A DNA stretch of 64,000 bases from a virus (IMGVR_UViG_3300017917_003143:2095-66094); one strand, 5' to 3'; shown: positions 14,223-62,525, counted from the first letter of the stretch. Notes: generated from the sequence alone by a model not told the origin. Program-made: numbers and translations.

Positions 14223-14294
14223 TACTGACCGATTTCTCCGTTTTGATATAAATAAGTGTAGGGCAAAAGGCCCACAAATATAAGGAGATTTATC

Positions 14295-26928: not shown

Positions 26929-27233
26929 ATCATTTTTTACAACTCAACGAAATTTACACTTTCAAAATGGTCAGCGGTGAGGAAATCACCGCTAAAGTAT
27001 TCAATAAAACTTCGGACTCAATAGAAGTTACCCAACCCATCAGCATGGTACTGGGTCCACAAGGGCTACAAATGATGCCCAGTTTGTTCTCTGCAAATCA
27101 GGACAAAAATGTCCATATAAATACTGCTACAATAGCCATGGCCGCGGAAACACGAGAAGATGTAAGAGCCAAATATTTAGAGGCCACTACAGGAATCGTG
27201 ACTCCTCCAGCCAAGCAAATTATAACAGGATAA
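26925..27233 (+). CDS. hypothetical protein
   Basis: 102 aa ORF with ATGA overlap with the redoxin gene. Confidence 0.45.
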   Translation: MNHFLQLNEIYTFKMVSGEEITAKVFNKTSDSIEVTQPISMVLGPQGLQMMPSLFSANQDKNVHINTATIAMAAETREDVRAKYLEATTGIVTPPAKQIITG

Positions 27234-34182: not shown

Positions 34183-35598
34183 ATGCTCTTGACATATCTT
34201 ATGCTGGGCGTGGCCTTGTGCTTGAGTGCCATCGCTGCCTTTTACTCCATCGTAGGCCTCATGGCTATTTTCGCCGCGGCCGCTATACCCATCGCGATCA
34301 TGGGATCCATATTGGAGATAGCCAAGCTCACGGTCACAGTATGGCTACACGAATACTGGACACAGGTCAAGCGTAGCATGAAACTTTACTTGGTGCCGGC
34401 AGTGGCTGTGTTGATGTTGATTACCTCGATGGGTATTTTTGGTTTCCTATCAAAGGCACACTTAGATCAAGCTGTACCCACAGGCGATGTAGCCGCCAAG
34501 GTAGCACTGATAGATGAAAAGATCAAAACAGAACGAGACAACATAGAAGCCGCTCGCAAGGCCTTGCGACAGATGGATGATGCTGTGGATCAGACCATGG
34601 CACGAAGCAACGATGAAAAAGGTGCCGACAAGGCTGCCAACCTACGTCGTAGTCAGGCACGTGAGAGAACAAATCTACAAAATGACATAGCCCGAGCACA
34701 AGGCGTAATCGCCAAGCTCAATGAAGAAAGAGCACCCATAGCCTCCGAACTGCGTAAGGTCGAAGCTGAAGTAGGACCAGTTAAATATATCGCGGCCTTG
34801 ATCTATGGCGACAATCCTGACACTAACTTACTGGAAAAAGCAGTGCGTTGGGTGATAATCATTTTAGTTTTCGTGTTTGATCCCCTGGCTGTGATGATGT
34901 TGTTGGCTGCCACAGAATCAATAAAATGGGAAAAAGAGCGATCAGCACAACCTCGAAAGGAGGATGAAGATGCCGGCAAATTGGATGATAATGCTGAACC
35001 TGATGCCAAGGATTTGGTTGGATTGGTACCAGCACCTGATGATGACATCAAACCCGTGGCTAATGATCTGGATATCCCCAAAGAACAATGGGGCGGACAA
35101 GACCTGATCCAACGTATAACCACACAACAGCAATCACCTGAACCTGGCCCAGAAGATGATTCTGAAACAGACCCAGAAAAAATAGCTCGCAGGACTTGGA
35201 AAGAACTCAATCCTGACGATACTATACATCGTCAAGAACTATTGTTTGAGCAAGGAAAAATTTCTCAATTACCCTGGAAAGAGTTAATGATCGCTCAAGC
35301 AGATGATGTTGAACACTTTAATAACATTGACTTCGGTACTAAATTTCCTGAGAACCCAGCCAAGGGCGATGCATATATAAGAGTAGATTACCTTCCAACA
35401 AAATTATTCAAATGGAATGGGGTCAAGTGGATAGAAGTAGATAAAAACATAACAGACACCTTTGCCTACAATGACAACTACATAGATCATCTCATAGCCA
35501 AGATCGGATCTGGCGAATACGATCCAGATCTCTTAAATCCCAGTGAACGCGATCAGATTGAACAGCGTTTGCGTAGCAACAACAACCTCAACGGGTAA
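34183..35598 (+). CDS. membrane-anchored coiled-coil protein with acidic C-terminal domain
   Basis: TM helices at the N-terminus and at ~220. Long coiled-coil segment. 471 aa. Confidence 0.5.
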   Translation: MLLTYLMLGVALCLSAIAAFYSIVGLMAIFAAAAIPIAIMGSILEIAKLTVTVWLHEYWTQVKRSMKLYLVPAVAVLMLITSMGIFGFLSKAHLDQAVPTGDVAAKVALIDEKIKTERDNIEAARKALRQMDDAVDQTMARSNDEKGADKAANLRRSQARERTNLQNDIARAQGVIAKLNEERAPIASELRKVEAEVGPVKYIAALIYGDNPDTNLLEKAVRWVIIILVFVFDPLAVMMLLAATESIKWEKERSAQPRKEDEDAGKLDDNAEPDAKDLVGLVPAPDDDIKPVANDLDIPKEQWGGQDLIQRITTQQQSPEPGPEDDSETDPEKIARRTWKELNPDDTIHRQELLFEQGKISQLPWKELMIAQADDVEHFNNIDFGTKFPENPAKGDAYIRVDYLPTKLFKWNGVKWIEVDKNITDTFAYNDNYIDHLIAKIGSGEYDPDLLNPSERDQIEQRLRSNNNLNG

Positions 35599-35601
35599 AC
35601 A

Positions 35602-36801
35602 ATGAATGAATCGTCTCAATATGAAAATTGCAGTTTTTGTAACAAACACAAAGACGAAGTAAAGAAACTGATAGTTGGCAATGGTGTAGCTATATGCAAT
35701 GAATGTGTCGACCTTTGCCAGAGTTTATTGGATGAAGACATCAAGGAAAGACCCAAGGATCTCACTGACATAGATCCACAAGAACTTAAATCCTATCTTG
35801 ATCAATATGTGATAGGTCAGGATCGCGCAAAGATGGTACTGAGCGTGGCCATCTCCAATCATTACAAGCGAATCCAACATCGCGATTCTGATGTAGAAAT
35901 TGACAAAGCCAACATCCTCATGCTTGGACCCACTGGGTCGGGCAAAACCTTGTTGGCCAAAACTGTGGCACGGTATCTCGACGTGCCGTTTGCCATAGCA
36001 GATGCCACATCTGTGACCGAAGCCGGATATGTAGGCGATGATGTAGAAAGCCTGATCCAGCGCCTGCTTACTGCCGCTGGTGGCGATGTAGAAAAATGCC
36101 AACGTGGTATCATATTTGTCGACGAGATCGACAAGATCGCTCGCAAGAGTGAGTCAGCATCAATCACAAGAGATGTTTCGGGAGAAGGTGTACAACAGGC
36201 CTTGCTTAAAATGGTCGAGGGCACTGTTTGTCGCATACCAGCCGCAGGTGGCCGCAAGCATCCAGGCGGTGAAATGCTTGAAGTTGATACCCGTAACATA
36301 CTGTTTATCGCAGGCGGTGCGTTTGTTGGTCTAGACCAGATAGTTAAAAAACGCATGTACGGTACCAGCATGGGCTTTGGTGCCACAGTGAGCCAACCCA
36401 AAGAAATCAGTCTTGAGCACGTGGTACCCGACGACCTTGTGAAGTTTGGATTGATTCCTGAATTCGTGGGTCGATTCCCTAGCTGGGTCAATCTGGATGA
36501 ACTCACCACAGAAGATCTTATCCATGTGCTCACAGATACTAAAAACTCATTGGTCAAGCAATATCAGCACCTTTTTGCCGCAGACAAAGTCGACCTTGAT
36601 TTTGAGCATGAAGCTCTAGAAACTATCGCGAAGAGATCAGCAGATTTTGGAACCGGTGCCCGTGCTCTGCACAGCGAACTTGAGCGTGTGTTGATGCCAC
36701 ACATGTTCAATATCAAACGCTACCGAGACCGTGGAATAAACCGCGTAGTTATTAACAAAGAACAAATAAATAATCCTACACCCGTTTACAAGGAGGAATA
36801 G
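35602..36801 (+). CDS. clpX: ATP-dependent protease ATPase subunit ClpX
   Basis: N-terminal C4 zinc-binding domain (CSFCNK...CNEC). Walker A GPTGSGKTLLAKT, Walker B IFVDEIDKI, sensor and IGF-loop region. Confidence 0.95.
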   Translation: MNESSQYENCSFCNKHKDEVKKLIVGNGVAICNECVDLCQSLLDEDIKERPKDLTDIDPQELKSYLDQYVIGQDRAKMVLSVAISNHYKRIQHRDSDVEIDKANILMLGPTGSGKTLLAKTVARYLDVPFAIADATSVTEAGYVGDDVESLIQRLLTAAGGDVEKCQRGIIFVDEIDKIARKSESASITRDVSGEGVQQALLKMVEGTVCRIPAAGGRKHPGGEMLEVDTRNILFIAGGAFVGLDQIVKKRMYGTSMGFGATVSQPKEISLEHVVPDDLVKFGLIPEFVGRFPSWVNLDELTTEDLIHVLTDTKNSLVKQYQHLFAADKVDLDFEHEALETIAKRSADFGTGARALHSELERVLMPHMFNIKRYRDRGINRVVINKEQINNPTPVYKEE

Positions 36802-36802
36802 T

Positions 36803-37015
36803 TTGGGAAAAAGTGTAGAAGTCCGCGATGGTAATGTAGAAAAAGCTCTACGAAAATTCAAGAAAAAGATACAGAATTCTGGCCTGTTGTTTGAGTTAAA
36901 AGAACGTGAACAGTATGTCAAGCCCACTACAAGACGCAAGCTCAAAGCATCAGCGGCCAAAAAACGCTGGCAAAAATATCTACGTAGCCAACAGCTTCCA
37001 CCCAAACTGTTTTAA
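36803..37015 (+). CDS. rpsU: 30S ribosomal protein S21
   Basis: VEVRDGNVEKALRKFKKK...YVKPTTRRKLKASAAKKR aligns along the full length with bacterial S21. TTG start after AAGGAGG RBS. Confidence 0.9.
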   Translation: MGKSVEVRDGNVEKALRKFKKKIQNSGLLFELKEREQYVKPTTRRKLKASAAKKRWQKYLRSQQLPPKLF

Positions 37016-37233
37016 TGTACATTGTCTTTGATGTCAGATTCCAGCACGAATTAGACACAGTCAAACAGCAGATAGCCGCCTGGGCTGAACGATATCAAAT
37101 ACAGTACACACAAAAAACCATAAAGTATCAGCACCGCCTTGGGCTCAATCGCGACAAAGAATTCACTCTTTTTTCCATGACTTGGGAAGGCATGCCCTAC
37201 AAAATAGTCAATATCGGCAACGAAGGATATTGA
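37015..37233 (+). CDS. hypothetical protein
   Basis: 72 aa ORF with TAATG overlap with rpsU. Confidence 0.4.
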   Translation: MYIVFDVRFQHELDTVKQQIAAWAERYQIQYTQKTIKYQHRLGLNRDKEFTLFSMTWEGMPYKIVNIGNEGY

Positions 37234-37260
37234 CAATCCCAAGAAAATCTGTTATAAATA
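37230..37260 (+). promoter_or_regulatory. sigma70-like promoter TTGACA-17-TATAAATA upstream of hsp20
   Basis: TTGACA at 37230-37235, 17 nt spacer, TATAAATA at 37253-37260. Followed by a conserved ~50 nt leader shared with the gene at 62250. Confidence 0.65.
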
Positions 37261-37321
37261 TACATGTAGGTGCCGATGGTCGGGCCTACATAGTCAAACT
37301 TGCTTAACAAAGGAGAAAATT

Positions 37322-37762
37322 ATGACTAAACTTACATCTCTAGATCTCACACCTTTCTACCGCCAAGCTATTGGCATTGACAGCCTATTCGATAGACTCA
37401 TGCACAATATCGATGTGGCCAGCTCACAGGCCAATAACTATCCTCCCTACAATATCATTAAAACTGGTGAGGACGCCTATCAAATCCAGATAGCAATCGC
37501 AGGATTTGCCGAAGGTGAAGTGGAGATCAATTTCCACGAAGGACAGCTCGTGATCACTGGTGAAAAGAACACAGATGACAGCGACACACAATATCTACAT
37601 CGAGGTATCAGTGCCCGCAAATTCATCCGTACTTTCCAACTCAGCGATTATGTAGAGGTCAAAGAAGCCGCTATGAAAGATGGTATTTTGACAGTGAGCC
37701 TGCAACGCATTGTGCCCGAAGAAATGAAGCCAAAGCGTATTGCAATCTCCTACGCAAAATAA
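37322..37762 (+). CDS. ibpA: small heat shock protein Hsp20 (IbpA-like)
   Basis: Near full-length match to IbpA architecture: LTPFYRQAIG...YPPYNI...IAIAGFAE...alpha-crystallin domain...KPKRIAI. Confidence 0.95.
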   Translation: MTKLTSLDLTPFYRQAIGIDSLFDRLMHNIDVASSQANNYPPYNIIKTGEDAYQIQIAIAGFAEGEVEINFHEGQLVITGEKNTDDSDTQYLHRGISARKFIRTFQLSDYVEVKEAAMKDGILTVSLQRIVPEEMKPKRIAISYAK

Positions 37763-37823
37763 TATAATAGCGTAAATACAGTGGAGGGCATGTTGCTCTC
37801 CACTCACTTACCAAGGGAAAAAG

Positions 37824-38138
37824 ATGTCAGATACTGCAACCCAGACAAAAACTACAATAAAACCCAGAGAGGATCTCAAAGAGCCTCCGATGTTCAAGGT
37901 GATCTATCTTAACGATAATCAAACTGCCATGGAATTTGTTATAGGAAGTCTGATTGAGCATTTTGATTACAGTCCTGTGACTGCTGAAAAACTCACGATA
38001 GATATCCACGAAGAAGGCTCAGCAGTGGTAGCTGTATTGCCATATGAACTGGCCGAACAAAAAGGCATCGAAGTCACTGTGACAGCCCGCAGTGCAGGCT
38101 ATCCTTTACAAGTCAAGCTCGAGCCTGAATCAGCTTAA
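37824..38138 (+). CDS. clpS: ClpS adaptor protein (N-end rule)
   Basis: PPMFKVIYLNDNQTAMEFVI matches the ClpS core (YKVILLNDDYTPMEFV). 104 aa. Confidence 0.8.
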   Translation: MSDTATQTKTTIKPREDLKEPPMFKVIYLNDNQTAMEFVIGSLIEHFDYSPVTAEKLTIDIHEEGSAVVAVLPYELAEQKGIEVTVTARSAGYPLQVKLEPESA

Positions 38139-38929
38139 ATAACGATCTCTATTCTTTTGGGGTAATACACACTTTTTGACCAAGGTGTGTTTCCTCGGCC
38201 TCGACAGTTGTTGACGTATCTTACACTGCCGCCCAAGTCCGTGTCAACATCACCGTGATAGTGTCCAAAGCACCAAGCCGCGACTTTGTTTTCAGTGTCC
38301 CCGGCCAGTGATCTTAATATGTAGGCATTGCCTGTGGTATTCATGCGATAGGTATCACTGAGCTCAAGATCGTGATTGACCAGTTCTAACATGGGCACAG
38401 TATGTGTGACCAACACTATCTTTTTCACGTCACGATAGGTCTGTAATCGCTGTACAGATTTGGCCAAGTAAGAAAAATCTTGTAGTGCCATGGCTTCAAT
38501 GGCATCGGCTATCTGCCGTGTGGTTTGATATCTATCTTGGAACCAGAGTTTGGTTTGATCGTAATCAATATGGGCATCAAGATCATAGGTCCACCATCCG
38601 TTGGTCCCTAAGAAAGCCACACCGTCTATGATGCATACATTGTCCTGTAGATAGGTAACATTGGGTATGTTTTCCAATTCTTCGGCCAGGCTCTTGTAAC
38701 TTTCACCAAGATCGTCTAAACTATAACGATGTTCATCATTGCCATCGATAAAAAATACGGCTCGATAGCACTCACCCAAGTGGCGCAAAGTATCTACCAA
38801 TATAGTCCGGTCTCTGCTGACATCTCCAGCTACCACACACATAGGGCTGGTGGCCATGCCAGTCCAGTCTATGGGCTCGTCCCATGTTTCGACATGTAAG
38901 TCTGAAATTAAATCAAATGCAAGTTTCAT
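38135..38929 (-). CDS. calcineurin-like metallophosphoesterase
   Basis: GDVSRDR, GNDEHR and GHYHGD metal-binding motifs in canonical order. Confidence 0.7.
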   Translation of the reverse strand: MKLAFDLISDLHVETWDEPIDWTGMATSPMCVVAGDVSRDRTILVDTLRHLGECYRAVFFIDGNDEHRYSLDDLGESYKSLAEELENIPNVTYLQDNVCIIDGVAFLGTNGWWTYDLDAHIDYDQTKLWFQDRYQTTRQIADAIEAMALQDFSYLAKSVQRLQTYRDVKKIVLVTHTVPMLELVNHDLELSDTYRMNTTGNAYILRSLAGDTENKVAAWCFGHYHGDVDTDLGGSVRYVNNCRGRGNTPWSKSVYYPKRIEIVI

Positions 38930-40017: not shown

Positions 40018-40464
40018 ATGAACAAATGGCTGGTCGCCATAATAACAAATCTGATAATGACCAGCATCGCAGTAAGTGGTGAGCTGGTACATCAATTCAA
40101 TAGCCCGTCCTTTAGTGGTCAAGGCTACAGTTCTCACGTCTTGACAATAGAACAATTAGAAGCCACGAGAAAAAAGGCCATAGCCGATGCACAACGAGCG
40201 GCACAAGACAAAGCCGAACGCGATGCAAAAAATACCAACTTGGCCAAGTTCTTGGTCAACGTTGAAAGTCGTATCTACGCACAGCTTTCCAAACAGTTAG
40301 CAGATGCTATGTTTACCGAAAGTGGTGCGTCATCGGGTGCCATGGATTTCCAAGGTACCAATATCAGTTGGGTCAAGACAGGTACAGATGTCACGCTGAC
40401 CATTATGGAATCCAACGGTAATCGCACAGAGATTACAGTACCTATAGCGAGCTTCAGTTTCTGA
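40018..40464 (+). CDS. csgF: curli assembly protein CsgF-like
   Basis: Signal peptide. Mature N-terminus HQFNSPSFSGQG matches the CsgF QFRNPNFGG motif. Adjacent to csgG. RBS AGGAG. Confidence 0.7.
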   Translation: MNKWLVAIITNLIMTSIAVSGELVHQFNSPSFSGQGYSSHVLTIEQLEATRKKAIADAQRAAQDKAERDAKNTNLAKFLVNVESRIYAQLSKQLADAMFTESGASSGAMDFQGTNISWVKTGTDVTLTIMESNGNRTEITVPIASFSF

Positions 40465-41591
40465 TGAAAAAACTACTCATGATCATGCTCGCTACCGCTC
40501 TCTCAGGTTGTGCCAGTTTTCAAATGGATCTGCTCAAAGAAGAACCAGTGGCCGTGGCGCCAAGGCAAGATCTCATTGCCAAGCTACCTGACCTAGATGG
40601 TCCTCCTATAACCATCGCTGTATACGGATTCCGCGACCTTACAGGACAAAACAAAGCCAACGATAAACTGGCCTTGTTTTCCAAGGCTGTCACCCAAGGC
40701 GCAGAAACATTCCTAATCAAGAGCTTACAGGACAGTAAAAATTGGTTCCGTGTTGTAGAGCGTGTGGGTTTAGATAATCTCATCAAAGAACGACAGCTCA
40801 TACGCAACCAGCGTGAAGTTTATGAAGGAAAAGAAGCCAGGCCTCTCAAGCCACTCACTGTGGCCGGTGTGATGATCGAAGGCGGTATCATCGGGTATGA
40901 TTCAAACATACGCTCAGGTGGTAACGGTGCTCGTTGGTTGGGCATAGGAGCTAGCCAGCAATACAGAGTAGATGAAGTCATAATCAGTTTGAGATTGGTC
41001 AGTATCAACTCGGGCGAAGTTCTAATGTCAACCGCTGTGAGCAAGACCATATATTCCACTGCCCATAATGTGGGAGTGTTCAAGTTCTTTGATCAAGGTA
41101 CCAGGAGCCTTGAGTTAGAGAATGGTGCGGCCTTGAATGAGCCCACCACTTATGCTGTGAGAGTGGCCATTGAGCAAGGTGTTTATGAAATGATCATGGC
41201 CGGAGAGAAGAAGGGACTATGGAGATTCCGTACTGAAAAGCCCGCAGTTTCGATAGCCCCTCCTGCTGTCATTGAGGAGAAAAAAGATGATGTCAAACCT
41301 GTTGCAACAGTTGTTGCGCCCGAAGGCACAGAAAAAACAAGAACGGTCGAAGTTGCACCCGCCGCGGTCGCATCAACTAATGTACGAGTACCTAAAACAC
41401 AAACACGACGAGCTACCGTCGTTGAGTGGAGCAACATTAGAAAAAGCCAAGACATCCAAAGCGAAAAAATAACAAATCTTCGCCCAGGAGTCGAGGTCGA
41501 AATTCTAACAGAAGAAAAAAACTTTTATAACGTCCGGGCGGACGGGAAAGAGGGGTGGGTAGCAAAGCGGTTTATTAAGGCACACCAATAA
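40464..41591 (+). CDS. csgG: curli secretion channel lipoprotein CsgG-like with C-terminal SH3b-like domain
   Basis: Lipobox LSGC. VMIEGGIIGYDSNIRSGGNGARWLGIGASQQYRVDEVIISLRLVSINSGEVL closely matches the E. coli CsgG core. Extra C-terminal SH3-like domain. Confidence 0.95.
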   Translation: MKKLLMIMLATALSGCASFQMDLLKEEPVAVAPRQDLIAKLPDLDGPPITIAVYGFRDLTGQNKANDKLALFSKAVTQGAETFLIKSLQDSKNWFRVVERVGLDNLIKERQLIRNQREVYEGKEARPLKPLTVAGVMIEGGIIGYDSNIRSGGNGARWLGIGASQQYRVDEVIISLRLVSINSGEVLMSTAVSKTIYSTAHNVGVFKFFDQGTRSLELENGAALNEPTTYAVRVAIEQGVYEMIMAGEKKGLWRFRTEKPAVSIAPPAVIEEKKDDVKPVATVVAPEGTEKTRTVEVAPAAVASTNVRVPKTQTRRATVVEWSNIRKSQDIQSEKITNLRPGVEVEILTEEKNFYNVRADGKEGWVAKRFIKAHQ

Positions 41592-41617
41592 AAATTATAA
41601 AGTGCCAGAGGAAAAAA

Positions 41618-42256
41618 ATGAAAATGAAATCAAGTATGACAGGCGCTAGTAAGTTGTCGAGTAAATTACTTACCAACTTCATGTTCATAGCCATGATCAG
41701 CAGTACCACCATGGCGGTGGCCAACGAAGTTTACATAGAGCAGGTAGGAGATAATTCTACCATTGCCATCACACAGGATGGTAGCAGTAATCGTATAGGC
41801 ACAGCATTGAATCCAGCTTATATCGGTTCAGGATCCAACACAGTGACCATAGATCAGATCGGCGGAAGCAACGAATTAGACATGATCGTCAATGGATCAG
41901 CCACAAATGTCACAGTCAGTGTGACAGGTAGCAACAACATACAAACCATTGATTGTGGAACCACTGTGTCTGCTGGATGTAGTGGCAGCTCTATCACGCA
42001 GAACATCACAGGCGATAACAACACGCTGGTCGCCAATCTTGGTGGTGGTGCTAATCATACCAGCACTATGAATGTCACTGGTGATTACAACTCTGTGACA
42101 CATACCAGCACCAATACAGGAACAACATCAGCAAATATCACTGTGAGTGGAAATACCAACACTATAGGAGTCACACAAAGTGGCACGACGGCTAAGAGCG
42201 TTACTGTTAATAGCACTGGCAATCTTAACAATATTACTATCAATCAGACCAACTGA
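41618..42256 (+). CDS. curlin-repeat (CsgA/CsgB-like) secreted amyloid subunit candidate
   Basis: Signal peptide. About 6 imperfect ~20-aa repeats of the form Q-x-G-x-x-N-x...-V/I-x-Q-x-G. Confidence 0.6.
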   Translation: MKMKSSMTGASKLSSKLLTNFMFIAMISSTTMAVANEVYIEQVGDNSTIAITQDGSSNRIGTALNPAYIGSGSNTVTIDQIGGSNELDMIVNGSATNVTVSVTGSNNIQTIDCGTTVSAGCSGSSITQNITGDNNTLVANLGGGANHTSTMNVTGDYNSVTHTSTNTGTTSANITVSGNTNTIGVTQSGTTAKSVTVNSTGNLNNITINQTN

Positions 42257-43280
42257 GGCAGCAGTAGGGCGAGTTTCTGAACAAACTGGCCCTACTGAAA
42301 TAGTTAGAAATCAAAAATCATTGCCCAGCCGGGTTAATACCGCTGTTGAAAGCAATGACACCATAATTACTGCTCGGGCAAGGGCACAGTTGACCTTTGA
42401 CGACAATACCACAGTTAAAATAACTGAACAGAGTAAATTGGTCATTGATGATTTTGTGTATGATCCTCGAAAAGGATCAGGCAAGTTAGCACTCAAAATG
42501 GCGCTGGGCACTGCTAGATATGCATCAGGACAGATAGCCAAAAACAATCCACAACAGGTAGCAGTGAAAACACCCACAGCAAGTATCGCAGTTCGTGGTA
42601 CAGACTTTTCCATGACTGTGGATGAGTTAGGTCGTAGTCTTGTGATGTTGTTGCCTAGCTGTGACAACCGAGGCTGTGTCACGGGTGCTATAGAAGTATC
42701 TAACGAAGCAGGTACTGTGTTATTGGAACAAGCATATCAAGCTACCTTGGTCCGGAGTATATCAACACCACCTACTGCTCCTGTGATCGTTTCTATAGAT
42801 CAAGCCAATATCAATAACTTGTTGATTGTTGCTCCACCGCCACAAATCAAACAAGAAGAAATACAACAGGAAACCAAAACAGCTCTGGACATAAATTTCC
42901 TAAACAAAGACTTCTTAAAATACAATGCTTTAGATGAAGACGAGCTTAAAAAATTCAGCGCATTAGACCAAAATTTTCTTGACGGAGAGTTCCTGGTCAA
43001 TATGTTAGACATCAGCAACGCACAGCTGGCCATGAGCCAAGAACAGTTTGCCATGCAGAATCAGATGTTGCCAGGGTACAATGCAGCCACTGAATTAAAA
43101 TATTACATCGATGCTGATGATGACAGCAAGTTAGTGTTAGATAGATCTGTAGGGCACATCGCTAGAGTCATTGTGAATAGAGAACACAATATGATTCTCA
43201 ATATCACACAAGATGGTGTGGCCATCACACAACCGGTAAACCGTAGCGGTTCTACCACAATTACCATCGTACAAAAATAA
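42180..43280 (+). CDS. FecR-domain secreted protein
   Basis: GTG start gives a textbook signal peptide (RRLRALLLIALAILTILLS...TEA-AVG) overlapping the previous gene's 3' end. FecR-like block ASIAVRGTDFSMTV. Confidence 0.45.
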   Translation: MARRLRALLLIALAILTILLSIRPTEAAVGRVSEQTGPTEIVRNQKSLPSRVNTAVESNDTIITARARAQLTFDDNTTVKITEQSKLVIDDFVYDPRKGSGKLALKMALGTARYASGQIAKNNPQQVAVKTPTASIAVRGTDFSMTVDELGRSLVMLLPSCDNRGCVTGAIEVSNEAGTVLLEQAYQATLVRSISTPPTAPVIVSIDQANINNLLIVAPPPQIKQEEIQQETKTALDINFLNKDFLKYNALDEDELKKFSALDQNFLDGEFLVNMLDISNAQLAMSQEQFAMQNQMLPGYNAATELKYYIDADDDSKLVLDRSVGHIARVIVNREHNMILNITQDGVAITQPVNRSGSTTITIVQK

Positions 43281-46365: not shown

Positions 46366-48432
46366 ATGCTGAAAAAATCCACCATTAAAAAACTGTTAGT
46401 TAGCCCTTGGACTGCGCTGATCACATTGGCGCTGATTATTGGATTGAGAGTAGCCGATCCTACTTTTGTAGAAAGTGTAAGACTGCGCTATTTTGATACC
46501 TTGATCACTGCCCAAGAACCCACGACCAATGATATCTACACTGTAAACATCGATGAGGATACTATTGCCAAGTACGGACAGTGGCCGTTTGATCGTCGTG
46601 TGTATGCTAACCTTATTGAAGACTTGTACAAAAGAAATGCTGGTCTAGTCATATTTAATGTTATGATGCCTGAGCGCGATCGGTCAGGCGGCGATGGATC
46701 CTTGGCAGCCACACTCAACGAACTAGATGTCATACTGCCTAACTTGCCTGCAGATCGTATGAAAAATACACCAAGACAGCCGGGCACTGCTGTGATAGGA
46801 GCAGAATTCTCTGATCAGATAGTACAATATCCTGGCATCATAGCCAACATTGACATGCTGGAAAAACGAGCCCGAGGTGTAGGCATAGTGGCTACCTTGC
46901 CTGAAGTGGACGGTGTCAACCGTAGGATGCCTTTGGTCGTGGCAGTGGACGGCAGAGTATATCCCAGCCTGGCCATGGAAGTGTTACGAGTTTCAGCCGG
47001 CGATAGTACCACACAGATCAAGCTCAATGAACTGGGTGTGGAAAAGATGCGCATACCTGCATTTGGCCCCATCGCCACCGACAGCCTGGGACGTATATGG
47101 ATTGACTGGAGCCAGCGCAGTCACAGTGTGTCGGCTGCAAACTTGCCCAAAGATTTTGGTGGTGCTGATGTCATAGTGGGCGTGGCCGCAGGTGGATTAG
47201 GTAATCCTGTGCCCACTCCTCGTGGTGCTGTGTGGCCACATGAAGTACAGGCCGCTGTGATAGCCACAATGTTCAACGGTGTCACGATTGAACGACCTGA
47301 CTATGCTGATGGTGTTGAAATCATATTCATAGCGGTCATAGGATTGATTATTATTGGAATGTCGAGGTGGACTTATGCAGGTATTCTTATATCTATTATT
47401 GGGATCATTGCCCCTATTGTTGCCAGTAGCCTGGCTTACAGTGAATGGCGAATCCTGGCGGACGCGACAGCAAGCACGGTTGGTCTTGTTCTCGTGGCTC
47501 TGCATACTTACGGGGTTAAGTTTGTAAGCGAGTTCTTGCAAAAGCAACAGATCAAAAAACAATTTGGAACTTATCTAAGCCCAGATCTTGTAGCACAACT
47601 GCAACGCAACCCTGATCTACTGGTATTAGGTGGAGACAGTCGTGAGTTAAGTATCATGTTCACAGATGTGCGTGGCTTTACAAGTATCAGCGAACACTAT
47701 GGTAAAGACGTTCAAGGACTTACAAAGATCATGAACCGCTATATGACAGCCATGACTAAAAAGATCTTGGAAAACAAAGGTACATTAGACAAGTACATCG
47801 GTGATGCACAGATGGCATTCTGGAACGCACCCTTGGACAACACACAGCATGCCAAGGATGCTGTAAAAACAGCTTTAGAAATGTTAGGGAGTTTGGATGA
47901 GTTCAATAGAGAAGTTCAAGCAGAAGGCGTACCACCTTTTGGTATGGGCCTTGGGATCAATACTGACACCGTTGTGGTGGGTAACATGGGAAGTGATCAG
48001 CGTTTTGACTATACTTGTCTTGGTGATGGCGTCAATTTGGCTAGCCGACTGGAGGGCCAGAGTAAACCGTACGGTGTCAAAATCGTGGTGGGGGCAAAAA
48101 CTGCTGAATATGTAGCAGACGAATACCTTGTGCTGGAGCTGGATTGTATCGCTGTCAAAGGCAAAAAAGAAGGTGTCAACATCTATACTGTGTTAGGGCG
48201 TATTGATGAGTTAAACATAGCCACCGCTGACATACAGATGCACGAGTCTATGTTGGCGCTGTATCGTCAGCAGAAGTTTGATCAAGCTGCCAAGGCCTGC
48301 AACAACTTGATGGGCCGCTTTGGGGGTGCCATGGATCACTATTATGAAATGTGGATAGAGCGTTGTGGGGAAATGAAGTCTGCTGGCTTGCCCTTAGATT
48401 GGGACGGTATCTATCGAGCAACCAGCAAGTGA
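46366..48432 (+). CDS. CHASE2 sensor domain + class III adenylyl/guanylyl cyclase
   Basis: N-terminal TM with periplasmic CHASE2-like domain. Multi-TM segment. Cyclase catalytic domain (IMFTDVRGFTSISE; KYIGDAQMAFWNAP; metal-binding Asp). Confidence 0.8.
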   Translation: MLKKSTIKKLLVSPWTALITLALIIGLRVADPTFVESVRLRYFDTLITAQEPTTNDIYTVNIDEDTIAKYGQWPFDRRVYANLIEDLYKRNAGLVIFNVMMPERDRSGGDGSLAATLNELDVILPNLPADRMKNTPRQPGTAVIGAEFSDQIVQYPGIIANIDMLEKRARGVGIVATLPEVDGVNRRMPLVVAVDGRVYPSLAMEVLRVSAGDSTTQIKLNELGVEKMRIPAFGPIATDSLGRIWIDWSQRSHSVSAANLPKDFGGADVIVGVAAGGLGNPVPTPRGAVWPHEVQAAVIATMFNGVTIERPDYADGVEIIFIAVIGLIIIGMSRWTYAGILISIIGIIAPIVASSLAYSEWRILADATASTVGLVLVALHTYGVKFVSEFLQKQQIKKQFGTYLSPDLVAQLQRNPDLLVLGGDSRELSIMFTDVRGFTSISEHYGKDVQGLTKIMNRYMTAMTKKILENKGTLDKYIGDAQMAFWNAPLDNTQHAKDAVKTALEMLGSLDEFNREVQAEGVPPFGMGLGINTDTVVVGNMGSDQRFDYTCLGDGVNLASRLEGQSKPYGVKIVVGAKTAEYVADEYLVLELDCIAVKGKKEGVNIYTVLGRIDELNIATADIQMHESMLALYRQQKFDQAAKACNNLMGRFGGAMDHYYEMWIERCGEMKSAGLPLDWDGIYRATSK

Positions 48433-52009: not shown

Positions 52010-53245
52010 ATGAATATCGGTTTTATTGGCTTAGGTAAATTAGGTTTAGACTGCGCAGAAGTCTTTGCAGAACGCTACTCAGTCTATGGTTATGATATAT
52101 ATCCACGCTACAGCGACACAGTCAAAGTTTGCACCAATGTGGAAGAAGTCATTGACCACAGTGACTGGTTGTTCATTGCTGTACCTACTCCACATGCCGA
52201 AGGCTATGATGGGTCAGTACCGAGCTCACACATGGAACCCCGGGATTTTGGCCATGAAGCTGTCAAGCAAGCCATTGAGTATGTGAATGCCTATGCCAAG
52301 GAACCCAAGCGTGTTGTATTGATCTCTACTGTGCTACCAGGCACCACCCGACGCCACTTTGCTACTCTGTTGGACAAGCGTCACCAGTTCTTATACAACC
52401 CGTATTTGATTGCCATGGGTTCTGTGAAGTGGGACATGGCCAATCCTGAGATGGTAATGATTGGTACAGAAACAGGTGATCCTAGTGAAATGCGTGATCT
52501 CATTGATTTGTACCGACCATTGATGAAAAACAACCCACGCTATGTCACAGGTACCTGGGACGAATGCGAAGCCATCAAGATTTTCTACAACACATTCATC
52601 TCAGCCAAGGTTGGTTTGGTAAACATGATCCAAGACTTTGCCTTAAAAATTGGCAACATCAACGTAGACGTTGTGACAGATGCCTTGGCACAATCCACCA
52701 TGCGTATCATGGGACCCAAGTACATGACAGCAGGCATGGGTGATGCAGGTGCTTGCCACCCACGTGATAACATCGCCCTGCGTTGGTTGGCCGAAGAATA
52801 CGACATTGGATATGACTTGTTTGATACCATCATGCATGCTCGTGAAGTGCAGGCCAAGAACCTTGCGCTGTTCTTGGTAGATCAAGCTAAAACAAACAAT
52901 CTGCCTATCGTGATACACGGCAAAGCATACAAGCCAGATGTTCCCTACTGTATTGGAAGCTATTCTACGCTGATTGGATACTACATCAATGAAGCAGGTT
53001 TCACAGTGAAATACCTGGATCCCTTGGCCGATGACAGCACTGACGTGATCGAAGCTGTCAAAGGTGCTTGTGTATTGCTCATGGCACACAATCGACAGAT
53101 CACATACGGTTACACCGGAGATGTGCGTGATGACACTTTTTATGCACCCATAGAAGCAGGATCTATCATCGTAGATCCATGGCGCAAACTCAATGACATA
53201 GCAGGATACAAAATTATCCATTATGGTAATACAAGAAAAAACTAA
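52010..53245 (+). CDS. nucleotide-sugar dehydrogenase (UDP-glucose/GDP-mannose dehydrogenase family)
   Basis: N-terminal Rossmann IGFIGLGKLGL. VVLISTVLPGTT block. Catalytic Cys region GMGDAGACHPRD resembles GGxCFxKD. Confidence 0.65.
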   Translation: MNIGFIGLGKLGLDCAEVFAERYSVYGYDIYPRYSDTVKVCTNVEEVIDHSDWLFIAVPTPHAEGYDGSVPSSHMEPRDFGHEAVKQAIEYVNAYAKEPKRVVLISTVLPGTTRRHFATLLDKRHQFLYNPYLIAMGSVKWDMANPEMVMIGTETGDPSEMRDLIDLYRPLMKNNPRYVTGTWDECEAIKIFYNTFISAKVGLVNMIQDFALKIGNINVDVVTDALAQSTMRIMGPKYMTAGMGDAGACHPRDNIALRWLAEEYDIGYDLFDTIMHAREVQAKNLALFLVDQAKTNNLPIVIHGKAYKPDVPYCIGSYSTLIGYYINEAGFTVKYLDPLADDSTDVIEAVKGACVLLMAHNRQITYGYTGDVRDDTFYAPIEAGSIIVDPWRKLNDIAGYKIIHYGNTRKN

Positions 53246-56801: not shown

Positions 56802-56886
56802 TTTGTTTCTTCCTTTATGAATATTTATACCAAAACTACCAGTTTTGATACTTGACTGTTAATGTTATTTATAGTAAAATTATCCA

Positions 56887-60913: not shown

Positions 60914-61409
60914 GATACCTTATGTGCCTAAATGGAATCTGTGGTGCAAAATATCCCCAGTGATCACAGTGGGTGATGATGTCCTTGATGCTGATCGATT
61001 GGGAGAGTTTGGATCAGACCTACACGGATTTGAAGAGTTCAAGATATCAATACTGTATGACAACCAGGTTCTGTATTCAGGAACGTTTGATCAACACCAG
61101 CCCATAGTTGTTGATGTAGATTTATTAGACGATAAAGAAAATACAGATCATGTACTGTGCATCGGACTTGAGGGCAAGACTGACGATCACAGTTGTTTTC
61201 ATCAGGGCAAAAGCGTTTCATTGGCCGCGAAAATCAACCTAAGCATAGAACAGATGCCCTTGGATCTCCATGTCATGGCAACAGGTATAAAAACCATCGC
61301 AGGCGAAAACGGCGTACAGAATTTTTCTATTAGCACACCTATCTATCGTTGGCTACTGAAAAATCATGAGCATATAACGGCTGATTTATATTCGATATAT
61401 AAAGAATGA
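60885..61409 (+). CDS. hypothetical protein
   Basis: ATG preceded by GAAGGAGAAG within ORF 60834..61409. 174 aa. Confidence 0.45.
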   Translation: MWHSLTPKGKIPYVPKWNLWCKISPVITVGDDVLDADRLGEFGSDLHGFEEFKISILYDNQVLYSGTFDQHQPIVVDVDLLDDKENTDHVLCIGLEGKTDDHSCFHQGKSVSLAAKINLSIEQMPLDLHVMATGIKTIAGENGVQNFSISTPIYRWLLKNHEHITADLYSIYKE

Positions 61410-62116
61410 CCCTATTTTTATACATCCTGGTGATGACACATATCACCATAGCCTGTGTTACCCTTTATTTGCATCGTAGCCAAGCTCATCGTGGCGTCAC
61501 GTTTGACCCACGTGTGAGTCATTTCATGCGTTTTTGGCTGTGGTTGACCACAGGCATGGTTACCAAACAATGGGTAGCCACACATCGCAAACATCATAGA
61601 TTCACCGACGCAGAAGGCGATCCGCACAGTCCTAGAAACGAAGGCATCTGGCAAATCTTGCTGGGCGGTGCCTTTTACTATGCCTGGGCCGCAAAAGATC
61701 GGGCCATGGTCGAACAATACGGAGCAGGAACACCCGATGATTGGATGGAACGCAACATATACACTCCATTCAATTGGTTGGGTGTGACACTAATGTTCTT
61801 TATCAACTGCATGATCTGGGGATGGGCTTGGGGGTGGTTGCCTTGGCTATGGCAGATGATCTGGATTCCGCTATGGGCCGCAGGAGTCATAAACGGGCTT
61901 GGACACTGGTGGGGCTACCGCAACACACAGACCCGAGACTATTCAACCAATATAGTACCTTGGGCGTTTTTTATCGGCGGCGAAGAACTGCACAACAATC
62001 ACCATGCTGATCCTGCCAGTCCCAAACTCAGCCAAAAGCGTTGGGAATGGGATCTGGGTTGGACCTATATCCGTATTTTAGAACGCTGTAAATTGGCTAC
62101 ATTACGGACAAACTAA
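61406..62116 (+). CDS. membrane fatty-acid desaturase (delta-9/stearoyl-CoA desaturase-like)
   Basis: Three His boxes HRSQAH, HRKHHRFTDAEGDPHSP and HNNHH with SCD-like spacing. Multiple TM helices. Confidence 0.7.
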   Translation: MTLFLYILVMTHITIACVTLYLHRSQAHRGVTFDPRVSHFMRFWLWLTTGMVTKQWVATHRKHHRFTDAEGDPHSPRNEGIWQILLGGAFYYAWAAKDRAMVEQYGAGTPDDWMERNIYTPFNWLGVTLMFFINCMIWGWAWGWLPWLWQMIWIPLWAAGVINGLGHWWGYRNTQTRDYSTNIVPWAFFIGGEELHNNHHADPASPKLSQKRWEWDLGWTYIRILERCKLATLRTN

Positions 62117-62249
62117 TTTGCTCAAAATCGTCAAATAGACGTAGATTTTTGTTGCGTTGCAACATAAATATCATATATAATAATGCAACACCAAGACGCT
62201 GGATGGTCCGGGTCTTGTACCGTAAACTCGCTTAACTAAGGAGAAAAAC

Positions 62250-62525
62250 ATGTTTACATTTGATTCAACAATCGACGCAGTACAAACAGGCAAGAAGCAG
62301 TTCGTAAAGACTTTCGTAACAGACGAAAAGATCGCTGATGCTTTAAACCAATTCATTGACAACCAAACTGAGTACACCAAAAAAGCTGTCAAAGCCACAG
62401 TGGACGCAGGTACCACAGTTGCTCAAGAGTCTATCAAGCACATCCAAGAAGCCGCTAAATTTGATTATACCAAATTTGGTGAAGGCATCATGAAGGCCTA
62501 CACAGCGCAAACCAAAACCAAGTAA
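62250..62525 (+). CDS. phasin-like small helical protein
   Basis: 91 aa Lys/Thr-rich helical protein. Leader shares a ~50 nt conserved motif with the hsp20 leader. Strong RBS AAGGAGA. Confidence 0.4.
   Translation: MFTFDSTIDAVQTGKKQFVKTFVTDEKIADALNQFIDNQTEYTKKAVKATVDAGTTVAQESIKHIQEAAKFDYTKFGEGIMKAYTAQTKTK

Follow-up and report, generated by a model that had tools for sequence, protein, structure and literature searches.

Five open reading frames (ORFs) lie in the same orientation, on the + strand, at positions 35602–38138 of the window, a 64,000-nucleotide stretch of viral DNA, and encode, in this order, ClpX, ribosomal protein S21, a 72-aa protein, an IbpA-like Hsp20 and ClpS. An earlier note on this DNA had placed five co-oriented ORFs at these coordinates and named four of them; the layout holds, and all four identities (ClpX, S21, Hsp20 and ClpS) were borne out by profile searches against Pfam, NCBIfam and PHROGs. 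The genes, their neighbours and the regulatory features are the following.

34183–35598, + strand: gene of a 471-aa upstream neighbour, ending 4 nt 5' of clpX
35602–36801, + strand: clpX, 399 aa, full-length AAA+ unfoldase with an N-terminal C4 zinc-binding domain
36790–36796, + strand: Shine-Dalgarno (SD) sequence AAGGAGG for S21, inside the last clpX codons
36803–37015, + strand: rpsU (bS21), 70 aa, TTG start
37015–37233, + strand: orf72, small conserved protein of 72 aa, its start overlapping the S21 stop (TAATG)
37253–37260, + strand: promoter-like motif TATAAATA, just 5' of the hsp20 leader hairpin
37264–37327, + strand: ROSE_3-like hsp20 5' leader, candidate RNA thermometer, with hairpin 1 at 37264–37291
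37322–37762, + strand: hsp20, 146 aa, IbpA-like small heat-shock protein (holdase)
37773–37804, + strand: clpS leader, a TAAATAC motif and then a GC-rich hairpin (37780–37804)
37824–38138, + strand: clpS, 104 aa, N-degron adaptor homolog
38135–38929, − strand: convergent metallophosphoesterase gene, its 3' end overlapping the clpS stop
62180–62255, + strand: second, weaker leader copy (hairpin, CUCGCU, AAGGAG, AUG), 5' of a 91-aa ORF at 62250–62525

ClpX exceeds the NCBIfam equivalog cut-offs of NF003745 (556.8 bits, cut-off 359) and TIGR00382 (536.6 bits, cut-off 370.75), contains the Pfam domains zf-C4_ClpX, AAA_2 and ClpB_D2-small, and has bacterial ClpX as its closest solved structures (E = 5e-132). 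S21 scores 68.5 bits with TIGR00030 (cut-off 28.95) and also matches Pfam Ribosomal_S21 and PHROG 21469; it is full length (70 aa, versus 71 aa in the bS21 chains of solved bacterial ribosomes, which it matches). Hsp20 is recognized by Pfam HSP20 PF00011 (71.5 bits, cut-off 20.8) and PHROG 432 (E = 1.5e-41), and the nearest solved small heat-shock protein is 7ck4. Its best NCBIfam model, IbpA NF008013, gives 133.1 bits, below the equivalog cut-off of 212, and the protein is therefore IbpA-like rather than a curated IbpA equivalog. ClpS reaches 78.4 bits with Pfam ClpS PF02617 (cut-off 23), its nearest solved structures being A. tumefaciens ClpS2 and E. coli ClpS; since all ten NCBIfam ClpS equivalog models stay below their cut-offs, the window ClpS is a divergent member. 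Purifying selection acts on all five ORFs (dN/dS 0.02–0.17), with values of 0.04–0.08 for clpX, 0.02–0.06 for rpsU, 0.06–0.15 for orf72, 0.08–0.17 for hsp20 and 0.04–0.08 for clpS. The possibility that clpX and clpS are pseudogenes is at odds with these values and with the catalytic and binding motifs, which are kept; both genes are intact.

The order of the island is syntenic in well over 100 large uncultivated phage contigs, and because of this recurrence the grouping lies far beyond chance. Among 65 ClpS-anchored loci retrieved independently, Hsp20 is present in all 65, ClpX in 63 and S21 in 61, and hsp20 and clpS are found closely upstream in 57 of 58 ClpP-anchored relatives. The gene order is kept down to about 58% ClpX identity and linkage persists at 46%. 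The relatives form a clade of uncultivated jumbo phages with contigs of up to about 300–520 kb. A DnaB-like helicase, RNR, ligase, tail-spike-like proteins and phage-only PHROGs give the window its phage context, and no near-DNA relative was found among deposited sequences. The block is thus a genuine phage module for proteostasis and translation, conserved and under selection. Every gene type in it, and the co-location of S21, Hsp20 and Clp genes, is already in print.

The clpX stop codon (36799–36801) is followed by the S21 start at 36803, and the location of the S21 SD sequence within the end of clpX suggests translational coupling of the two genes. SD motifs are common in the window (30 of 63 genes), unlike Bacteroidetes-type translation. 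As in the bS21-encoding phages used for comparison (Pelagibacter phage HTVC008M, the freshwater Bacteroidetes phages of Chen et al. 2022 and the huge phages of Al-Shayeb et al. 2020), the protein is of normal length. In the clades detailed by Chen et al., bS21 lies amid structural genes (terminase, capsid, prohead protease), whereas here it appears coupled to clpX; in public phage genomes the same authors found Hsp20 (n = 127) and two Clp protease families (n = 50 and 47) at most 10 genes away from bS21 (PMC9723584). That S21 biases translation is the usual hypothesis in print for phage bS21 (PMC9723584, PMC6375957), an idea to which the present findings neither add nor take away; the HTVC008M protein is incorporated into E. 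coli ribosomes according to the citation of PMC6375957 in PMC9723584.

The slot between S21 and hsp20 is variable, being filled in relatives by DnaK, GroES-GroEL or small ORFs and here by orf72. No tblastn match to a relative's DnaK or to E. coli DnaJ, GrpE, GroES, GroEL or SspB was obtained in the 64-kb window. The 72-aa protein belongs to no family in Pfam, NCBIfam or PHROGs and has only 10 homologs among 5.8 billion proteins. Its AF2 model (pLDDT 70) displays a beta-alpha-beta-beta topology, with no significant match of the predicted fold in the PDB.

The motif TATAAATA upstream of the hsp20 leader corresponds to the T4 late-promoter consensus. Six copies are present in the window against 1.5 expected, and an alignment of 124 leaders shows conservation of (T)ATAAATA here; it would be a putative promoter. 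Behind hairpin 1, the segment AGUCA (37292–96) faces UGACU of the start region and UUGCU (37300–04) faces the SD AGGAG (37311–15), with the AUG at 37322. The Rfam model ROSE_3 (RF02523) matches the leader over its full length with 29.4 bits (E = 0.003), short of the gathering score of 43; leaders at the same place reach 32–36 bits in 4 of 12 relatives, and no match at the gathering threshold was seen in 20 loci. In its sequence, the hairpin core GAUGCCGA...UCGGGUC agrees with the ROSE_3 consensus, and compensatory changes occur at 6 of 8 hairpin pairs across the 124 leaders. The SD/anti-SD stem is invariant and for this reason yields no covariation signal. The motif U[UC]GCU-N3-14-AGGA is present in 121 of 127 hsp20 leaders (95%), and in 17 of 18 dnaK leaders of relatives (94%), versus 0–2% of control leaders. 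A simple ViennaRNA nearest-neighbour calculation gave an SD accessibility of 0.39 at 10 C and 0.44 at 50 C, a weak temperature effect.

Judged by these sequence features, the hsp20 leader is a candidate phage RNA thermometer. Like the ibpA ROSE thermometers (RF02523; ROSE as defined in PMC11342760), it forms the 5' leader of a gene for an IbpA-like protein and reaches at its end over both SD and AUG, sets a conserved U(U/C)GCU against AGGAG with room for a bulged G, and has an upstream hairpin whose core matches the consensus. It differs from known ROSE_3 elements in being phage-borne, in its scores (29–36 bits versus the gathering score of 43), in standing before dnaK too in relatives, and in an extra AGUCA:UGACU stem that would cover the start codon. 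The second copy in the window scores 33.4 bits (E = 4e-4) with covariance model R1, and the 91-aa ORF behind it has no family in Pfam, NCBIfam or PHROGs. In one relative, L042, an orphan copy of the leader lies without an ORF downstream.

The clpS gene also has a hairpin in its leader. The fold z-score is −2.75 and none of 200 shuffled sequences folded equally well; of the 133 unique hsp20-clpS spacers, 128 have a folding energy of −10 kcal/mol or below. In the relatives inspected, a strong hairpin of varying stem sequence follows the TAAATAC motif, which on its own is not enriched in the window. A sigma-70-like TTGCAA-N17-TATAAT is located at 37740–37768.

The alternative that survives best concerns the hsp20 leader, which in that case would not be a thermometer; a promoter-proximal 5' stabilising hairpin and a strong SD would have been inherited with the ibpA-like gene and kept for mRNA stability or general translational tuning. 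Every sequence tested remains under the Rfam gathering score, the predicted temperature dependence is weak, the L042 copy has no ORF downstream, and an analogous motif and hairpin precede clpS with no ROSE motif, so that hairpin 1 could be a generic 5' stabiliser. Such a general function is harder to reconcile with a U[UC]GCU-N3-14-AGGA motif specific to hsp20 and dnaK leaders, with the sequence match of the hairpin core to ROSE_3 and with two different chaperone genes bearing the same leader, and this explanation is kept as a sizeable minority possibility.

All the ATPase, pore and zinc-binding motifs compared are present in the window ClpX. The four zinc-binding cysteines, the Walker A lysine, the GYVG pore loop, the Walker B DE, the arginine finger and the sensor-II arginine are invariant in 125 unique ClpX family sequences, and the window protein has the RKH loop too. 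The ClpP-docking loop [I/M/L]GF is found in 123 of the 125 sequences (M257-G258-F259 in the window). The sole N-domain is the usual zinc finger, a Clp_N domain being absent in the Pfam search. The nearest cellular ClpX proteins are only 50–55% identical and come from mixed phyla.

The statement that clpP is missing from the window holds, as E. coli ClpP gave no tblastn match in the 64 kb. One weak tblastn match obtained with the E. coli ClpP/ClpA queries (52436–52849) sits in a UDP-glucose dehydrogenase-like gene and is not a clp gene. The closest relative (ClpX 92% identical) is colinear across the shared region and has two clpP genes, a divergent one beginning 0.6 kb and a canonical one beginning 2.9 kb past the end point of the window. 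The last ORF of the window, cut by the window end, corresponds to bases 1–159 of L287 (94% match), which then carries a CLP_protease paralog at 778–1359 and a canonical ClpP at 2905–3588. A clpP lies within 0.4–30 kb of the island in every subclade examined: 0.4–3 kb past clpS in one subclade, where ClpP is 60–63% identical to that of E. coli, and 9–30 kb downstream in the window's own subclade. The Ser-His-Asp triad of ClpP is invariant in 142 sequences. By synteny, then, the absent clpP is most likely a window-edge effect, and the tempting misreading of a missing ClpP is traced to the place where the window was cut. Since the clpP genes of the closest relative lie just past the window end, the phage most likely builds its own ClpXP instead of borrowing host ClpP, the clpP of this very genome being placed by synteny.

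Two other uses of ClpX were weighed against a phage ClpXP. Bacterial ClpX remodels MuA or lambda O complexes, and the phage protein could likewise work chiefly as a ClpP-independent chaperone that remodels or unfolds proteins in phage replication or virion assembly, the island then being essentially a chaperone set. Its neighbours are indeed chaperones (Hsp20, and DnaK or GroESL in relatives) and similar suggestions have been published for ClpX and ClpA of jumbo phages (PMC7824862, PMC6102473), but the retention of [I/M/L]GF in 123 of 125 sequences, together with an intact ClpP in the lineage, would be needless for ClpP-free work and makes a mainly ClpP-independent ClpX unlikely. The ClpP-dependent and ClpP-independent roles are not mutually exclusive. 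Less probable again is a phage devoid of ClpP whose ClpX (with ClpS) captures host ClpP and so redirects host proteolysis, a redirection that the earlier note had supposed: clpP is without a match in the 64 kb and the conserved IGF-type loop would suit host ClpP as well, but the lineage has its own ClpP, with hsp20 and clpS beside it in nearly all ClpP-anchored relatives, two Clp protease genes directly past the cut point in the closest relative, and clpP near the island in each subclade. A most likely phage-encoded ClpXP is thus retained.

The ClpS core is preceded by an N-terminal extension, with a Pro-Pro junction (P21-P22) between them. The E. coli pocket residues N34, D35, D36, T38, M40, V43, M62, V65, H66 and L99 were compared (E. 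coli numbering). Six of them, N34, D35, T38, V43, H66 and L99, make up the pocket core and do not vary among 131 sequences, of which 113 retain M40. Position 36 is Asn in the window and Asn, Asp or Glu in 78, 26 and 24 of the 131 sequences, respectively, while M62 is replaced by Thr in 128 and L32 by Tyr in 129; the changes at these three positions are clade-specific. With L32Y, M62T and D36N, the preference for degrons may have shifted. Docking on the N-domain of ClpA involves residues (roles from PMC12493166, with further residue roles in 10.1101/2024.06.12.598358 and PMC9663308) that are kept: E79 in 131 of 131, E82 in 130, and K84 as Lys in 124 and Arg in 7, corresponding to E75, E78 and K80 in the window.

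No ClpA was detected in the window by tblastn with E. coli ClpA, nor in 224 clade loci with flanks of 10 kb or less. The ClpA-bearing viral contigs (best 80 of 211 matches) belong to other lineages and have no contig or specific gene in common with the clade. Given the retained ClpA-docking residues and N-degron pocket core, and with no clpA of the clade detected in these searches, ClpS is likely to partner with ClpA or ClpC of the host; the presence of either in the host is an assumption, as the nearest cellular ClpX proteins are so distant and of mixed phyla. Bacteria too encode ClpX and ClpS with no interaction between them. The working pair of ClpS and ClpX read into the island earlier, that is, a ClpS re-targeted to phage ClpX as a new adaptor-unfoldase pairing, is very improbable: the co-location is real and near-absolute (63 of 65), no clpA of the clade turned up in the 224 loci or among the best 80 of 211 viral ClpA matches, and the ClpS pocket has clade-specific substitutions, but the residues docking on the ClpA N-domain are conserved (PMC12493166), ClpX has no Clp_N domain and only its zinc-finger N-domain, two relatives (L160 and L204) lack clpX and keep clpS, hsp20 and S21, and clpS, with its own promoter-like motif and hairpin, is uncoupled from clpX.

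The reading that we favour, with a probability of roughly 0.6, is a protein quality-control and translation island of four working parts (ClpX, Hsp20, ClpS and S21), long kept by a clade of jumbo phages. ClpX would be an unfoldase with full competence, its [I/M/L]GF loops docking on a ClpP that is most likely phage-encoded, by synteny just past the 3' end of the window, and the two would so form the phage's own ClpXP machine. As an IbpA-type holdase, Hsp20 would hold unfolding or aggregation-prone proteins soluble during bulk phage protein synthesis; in relatives the adjacent slot adds DnaK or GroES-GroEL. The hsp20 gene would be served by a promoter-like motif of its own and a ROSE_3-like leader. 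There, U(U/C)GCU is predicted to pair imperfectly with the SD and the AUG region to be sequestered too, so that translation would probably stay repressed as long as neither temperature nor some other destabilising condition opens up the stem. Since the clade shows no ClpA, ClpS would most likely plug into host ClpA (or ClpC) via its N-domain, switching the protease to N-degron substrates and off ssrA-type and other direct substrates. S21, probably coupled to clpX in translation, would be expected to displace host bS21 on 30S subunits, as has been hypothesized in print for phage bS21.

A more far-reaching combination is put forward only tentatively and is on balance doubtful: the leader of hsp20 (and of dnaK in relatives) would be a working ROSE-class thermometer with which the clade gates its own chaperones by temperature or stress, an orphan, pocket-remodelled ClpS would hijack host ClpA/ClpC, and the phage would run its own ClpXP. 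If this is true, the ROSE-class thermometer would be the first in a virus, as far as a limited literature search shows; the phage RNA thermometers in the literature consulted, as of 2024, are lambda cIII, SPbeta blyA and a sigma-70 fourU element (PMC11182007). Should the favoured four-part model hold, the island would be, beyond single borrowed host-like genes, a near-complete modular quality-control kit, with its own ClpXP, a holdase, an exchangeable Hsp70/chaperonin slot, an adaptor for a host protease and a ribosomal protein, and an RNA-based sensor would control at least the chaperone genes. It would also offer a tractable system for proteome stress in large-phage infection, for the reprogramming of a host protease by an orphan ClpS and for RNA thermometers in environmental viruses.

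With respect to bacterial ClpXP/ClpAPS (E. coli), the zinc-binding domain, GYVG pore loop, RKH loop and IGF-type loop of ClpX, the pocket core, Pro-Pro junction and E79/E82/K84 of ClpS and the Ser-His-Asp triad of the relatives' ClpP are all kept. The differences are that the system is phage-encoded, that clpX is outside a clpP-clpX operon and clpS apart from clpA, none of which was found, that the ClpS pocket has L32Y, M62T and N, D or E at D36, and that ClpX is only 50–55% identical to cellular ones. Phage-encoded ClpX, ClpS, ClpP and Hsp20 are all on record in cultured jumbo phages (PMC6102473, PMC7824862), for which it has been proposed that ClpS feeds targets to host ClpAP and that ClpX and ClpA are translocases or assembly chaperones (same sources). 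The jumbo phages compared were Agrobacterium phage Atu_ph07, Rak2-like phages and a survey of 224 jumbo phages. The Clp genes of Atu_ph07, which include ClpA, ClpB and DnaJ, are scattered (gp2, gp292, gp676 and gp708), unlike the single conserved, ordered island with S21 seen here, in which ClpA was not found. The best ClpS match in deposited phages is about 38% identical.

The island is flanked by conserved neighbours on both sides. The 471-aa protein is encoded directly 5' of clpX in all 65 ClpS-anchored relatives with enough flank; it has weak family matches only (DUF7260 and PHROG 11591) and a dN/dS of 0.12–0.15, and its gene may share the clpX transcription unit. At the other end, the metallophosphoesterase gene (PHROG 1649, E = 7e-30; TIGR03729) is a syntenic neighbour found at the same position in most relatives.

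The genes between positions 35602 and 38138 of the window form a closely spaced run of five ORFs in the same orientation, all of them present as described in the earlier note:

35602–36801, + strand, ClpX (both NCBIfam ClpX equivalogs exceed their cut-offs, with 557 and 537 bits; Pfam zf-C4_ClpX, AAA_2 and ClpB_D2-small)
36803–37015, + strand, ribosomal protein bS21 (TIGR00030, 68.5 bits, cut-off 28.95)
37015–37233, + strand, orf72, a 72-aa protein without a family in Pfam, NCBIfam or PHROGs
37322–37762, + strand, Hsp20 (best NCBIfam model IbpA, 133 bits, below its 212-bit cut-off)
37824–38138, + strand, ClpS (Pfam, 78 bits, cut-off 23; every NCBIfam ClpS equivalog below its cut-off)

The closest solved structures are bacterial ClpX, Agrobacterium tumefaciens ClpS2 and Escherichia coli ClpS, the bS21 of bacterial ribosomes and small heat-shock proteins. 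The dN/dS values, calculated for the window against four relatives, lie between 0.02 and 0.17 for the five ORFs, orf72 included, and therefore exclude pseudogene status for all of them. The AlphaFold2 model of orf72, built from a shallow alignment, has a pLDDT of 70, and its comparison with the PDB by Foldseek gave nothing with E < 0.1. Further chaperone and adaptor genes were sought in the window by tblastn, and no match was obtained with DnaK (queried with the protein of a relative) or with E. coli DnaJ, GrpE, GroES, GroEL and SspB.

The window has an even GC content of about 45%, no tRNA gene, and a content that includes a DnaB-like helicase and a second helicase, a ribonucleotide reductase, an ATP-dependent ligase, tail-spike-like proteins and phage-only PHROGs. 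None of 50,697 deposited phages matches it closely at the DNA level; those that carry ClpX are mostly jumbo phages, with a ClpX at most 55% identical to that of the window, and the ClpS matches in deposited phages reach at most 38%, so that no cultured relative could be used here. On the basis of this gene content, the missing near-DNA match and the jumbo-phage ClpX matches, the window is a portion of the genome of a large uncultivated phage. It also carries a curli-type secretion set (40018–43280), composed of CsgF (40018–40464), a CsgG-SH3 fusion (40464–41591), a curlin-repeat protein (41618–42256) and a FecR-domain protein (42180–43280), which sits in an insertion of about 11.5 kb missing from the related locus L184 and has homologs 38–57% identical in the closest relative (L151). 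The gene at 46366–48432 joins a CHASE2 sensor domain to an adenylate/guanylate cyclase domain (PHROG 35576, E = 6.5e-240), with homologs 37–40% identical in Methylophilales phage Melnitz and Pelagibacter phage HTVC008M. Host-like metabolic genes encode a fatty-acid desaturase (61406–62116) and a UDP-glucose/GDP-mannose dehydrogenase-like protein (52010–53245).

The arrangement of the island was followed in related viral contigs of IMG/VR, retrieved through ClpX (67 loci; longest contig 323 kb) and through ClpS (80 retained of 184 relatives). When the cassette proteins were located in these loci by tblastn, the order up1 (the gene of a 471-aa protein directly 5′ of clpX), clpX, S21, a variable segment, hsp20, clpS and a minus-strand phosphoesterase gene was found to be kept down to about 58% ClpX identity, and the genes of the cassette remain linked at 46%. 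A count restricted to the 65 ClpS-anchored loci that came from outside the ClpX scan and whose upstream flank measures 4.5 kb or more found Hsp20 in all 65, ClpX in 63 and S21 in 61. Two loci (L160 and L204) are natural clpX-loss variants, with up1, S21, hsp20 and clpS present and clpX absent between up1 and S21. The slot between S21 and hsp20 holds a full-length DnaK of 638 aa (e.g. L031, 11515–13431) or GroES-GroEL (e.g. L026, L042, L154 and L213); in the subclade of the window it contains nothing but small ORFs, orf72 among them. This exchange of DnaK, GroES-GroEL and small ORFs at one place supports the reading of the island as a proteostasis module. Every gene type of the island is already known from jumbo phages (PMC7824862, PMC6102473), and Hsp20 and two Clp protease families were reported by Chen et al. 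(2022) among the commonest bS21 neighbours in public phage genomes (PMC9723584). For the fixed order clpX-S21-slot-hsp20-clpS with clpP nearby, and for the exchangeable DnaK/GroESL slot, a limited literature search found no description.

In the ClpX family, the four zinc cysteines, the Walker A lysine, the GYVG motif, the Walker B Asp-Glu pair, the arginine finger and the sensor-II arginine are present without exception in 125 unique sequences, and the RKH loop is retained in most of the family. The ClpP-docking tripeptide [I/M/L]GF is found in 123 of the 125 (Met257-Gly258-Phe259 in the window), and the phage ClpX thus looks equipped for work with ClpP. Identity is 58–92% within the phage family; by sequence, this ClpX is an old phage-resident lineage. 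Its closest cellular homologs, from Spirochaetes, Marinomonas, Actinomycetota and Bdellovibrionota, are only 50–55% identical and belong to unrelated phyla, and for this reason the assignment of a host or donor from ClpX similarity was rejected.

The absence of clpP from the window, stated in the earlier note, was confirmed by tblastn with E. coli ClpP; a weak match at 52436–52849 was discarded, as it falls in the dehydrogenase-like gene. The reading of a phage ClpX without a phage ClpP is not borne out by the relatives. A subclade at about 60% ClpX identity encodes, 0.4–3 kb beyond clpS, a ClpP that is 60–63% identical to the E. coli protein, and hsp20 and clpS lie upstream in 57 of 58 ClpP-anchored loci. 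Within the subclade of the window clpP is more distant, at 9 kb in L184 (relative to which the window has some 11.5 kb extra, at 39.3–50.9 kb) and at 16–30 kb on eight other contigs. The closest relative, contig IMGVR_UViG_3300023174_004816 (ClpX 92% identical), carries clpP in its locus L287, bases 1–159 of which match the truncated last ORF of the window (63425 to the end) with 94% amino-acid identity, so that L287 resumes exactly where the window ends. Its relevant features are:

L287 778–1359, divergent CLP_protease paralog (95 bits)
L287 2905–3588, canonical ClpP (264 bits)
L287 3588–4877, radical-SAM protein, directly after clpP

The Ser-His-Asp triad of ClpP is present without exception in 142 family sequences. 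The divergent paralog was found in 26 of 173 clpP loci, and its position alongside the canonical ClpP in the closest relative hints at a two-subunit ClpP. Pieces identical to the window are present in sample SRR5831666. Extension of the window in the 3′ direction by an exact-protein look-up of its last complete ORF led to a 5.8-kb Logan contig that ends short of the window end, and the truncated last ORF, used as a query for homologs, did not retrieve an identical protein. Since these walks gave no sequence beyond the window end, the placement of clpP depends on synteny with the relatives, from which we strongly infer that the genome of this phage has its own clpP; judged in the same way, the lack of the gene in the window is a window-edge effect. 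On another contig, IMGVR_UViG_3300027749_002876 (524,565 bp; L080 and L082), the clpP region appears twice in opposite orientations (62000–74581 and 457969–470550), a pattern that may reflect an inverted duplication, or else an artefact of assembly that inflates the apparent genome size.

The ClpS residues were compared in E. coli numbering; the expected residue was found at every literature position queried, which supports the accuracy of the E. coli reference sequences used. The roles of the residues were verified in four sources (PMC12493166, 10.1101/2024.06.12.598358, PMC12258705 and PMC9663308). E. coli ClpS docks on the N-domain of ClpA through Glu79, Glu82 and Lys84 (PMC12493166), the acidic pair of this surface being likewise reported elsewhere (10.1101/2024.06.12.598358). 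In 131 phage ClpS sequences position 79 is Glu in all, position 82 is Glu in 130, and position 84 is Lys in 124 and Arg in seven; the window protein has Glu75, Glu78 and Lys80. It also has, at Pro21-Pro22, the Pro-Pro junction known from ClpS N-terminal extensions (PMC9663308). The core of the binding pocket (Asn34, Asp35, Thr38, Val43, His66 and Leu99) does not vary among the 131 sequences, and the gatekeeper Met40 is retained in 113. The pocket and its rim carry clade-specific residues, with Tyr in place of Leu32 in 129 of 131 sequences and Thr in place of Met62 in 128. Position 36 is Asn in 78 sequences, the window included, Asp in 26 and Glu in 24; this residue flanks the pocket and influences its charge preference (PMC12258705), and in Caulobacter ClpS the position contacts the α-amino group (PMC12493166). 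An altered degron preference of the phage ClpS is plausible given the residues at positions 32, 62 and 36, which in the window protein are Tyr28, Thr58 and Asn32. For an orphan ClpS that combines conserved ClpA-docking residues with a remodelled pocket, no description was found in the limited literature search.

The pairing of ClpS with ClpX proposed in the earlier note did not hold either, as the ClpA-docking residues are kept and L160 and L204 retain clpS without clpX; the conserved docking surface points at ClpA or ClpC as the partner. No ClpA was found by tblastn with the E. coli protein in the window, and none was detected in 224 loci of the clade (±10 kb around ClpX or ClpS, ±6 kb around ClpP). 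A scan of viral contigs with E. coli ClpA returned other lineages and no clade contig among the best 80 of 211 ClpA-bearing contigs, a weak negative because it is limited to those 80. The economical reading is that the phage ClpS would plug into the ClpA or ClpC machine of the host, a target already proposed for ClpS of other jumbo phages (PMC7824862); on such a machine ClpS promotes N-degron degradation and inhibits that of ssrA-type substrates (PMC9663308). Separately, clpA has a DnaJ homolog no more than 3 kb away in 66 of the best 80 of 211 ClpA-bearing contigs (L313–L382), a different conserved chaperone pairing of other large-phage lineages that fits gp292 and gp293 of Atu_ph07 (PMC6102473).

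With both headline surprises of the earlier note gone, the points worth follow-up are the modular island and the leader of hsp20. The phage S21 is of normal length and strongly constrained. Phage bS21 is well documented; that of HTVC008M enters E. coli ribosomes, and the standing hypothesis is that phage mRNAs are preferentially translated (PMC6375957, PMC9723584, PMC7162821). Of the 63 genes of the window, 30 have an SD-like motif ahead of them, compared with a background of 11%, and initiation in the host is thus probably SD-dependent. An AAGGAGG motif (36790–36796) lies within the 3′ end of clpX, 6 nt ahead of the TTG start of S21, and the stop of S21 shares TAATG with the start of orf72; clpX, S21 and orf72 look translationally coupled. 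Each of hsp20 and clpS has an intergenic leader of its own, in which a hairpin comes after a TAAATA-type motif. The sequence TATAAATA, the T4 late-promoter consensus, occurs six times in the window (1.5 expected), at 14247–14254, 27116–27123 and 37253–37260 and, on the minus strand, at 4723–4730, 56822–56829 and 56866–56873. Most copies are directly upstream of ORF starts, and it may be a late or middle promoter of this phage.

The hsp20 leader (37264–37327) gave the sole Rfam match of the region, a full-length one to ROSE_3, an ibpA-type thermometer, with 29.4 bits (E = 0.003) and below the gathering score of 43. The same place scores 32–36 bits in four of 12 relatives; the gathering score was reached in none of 20, and formal ROSE_3 membership was rejected on this ground. 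Among 124 distinct hsp20 leaders, hairpin 1 shows compensatory double changes in six of its eight pairs, the CUUGCU and AGGAG motifs are near-invariant, and the SD stem has zero covariation. ROSE-like thermometers pair a U(U/C)GCU element imperfectly with the SD sequence, with a bulged G (PMC11342760). The corresponding pattern U[UC]GCU-N3-14-AGGA stands ahead of hsp20 in 121 of 127 leaders and ahead of phage dnaK in 17 of 18; in the leaders of clpS, clpX, clpP and neighbouring genes its frequency is only 0–2%. The leaders of dnaK, of which L031 11440–11525 is an example, have the whole architecture in common with those of hsp20, groES leaders having a sigma-70-type promoter instead. When the hsp20 leaders were used to build a covariance model, each dnaK-bearing locus gave two matches, one ending at dnaK and the other at hsp20, and every match was on the coding strand. 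The effect of temperature on the hsp20 leader was weak in a nearest-neighbour calculation, and we regard it as a candidate thermometer, ROSE_3-like and not a curated member. Very few RNA thermometers are listed for phage genomes in a 2024 paper (lambda cIII, SPbeta blyA and a sigma-70 fourU element; PMC11182007), and for a ROSE-like leader common to phage hsp20 and dnaK no description was found in the limited literature search.

The covariance model also detected a second, weaker ROSE-like leader in the window (62180–62255), with a hairpin, CUCGCU, AAGGAG and AUG, ahead of a 91-aa ORF (62180–62525 together) that Pfam, NCBIfam and PHROGs do not assign to any family; a phasin-like reading of this ORF was dropped, as no tool supported it. 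Two loci with GroES-GroEL in the slot have an additional leader of the hsp20/dnaK type between S21 and groES (L042, 11419–11488; L190, 7275–7346), that of L042 with no ORF start at its 3′ end, and this element may be the remnant of a replaced dnaK.
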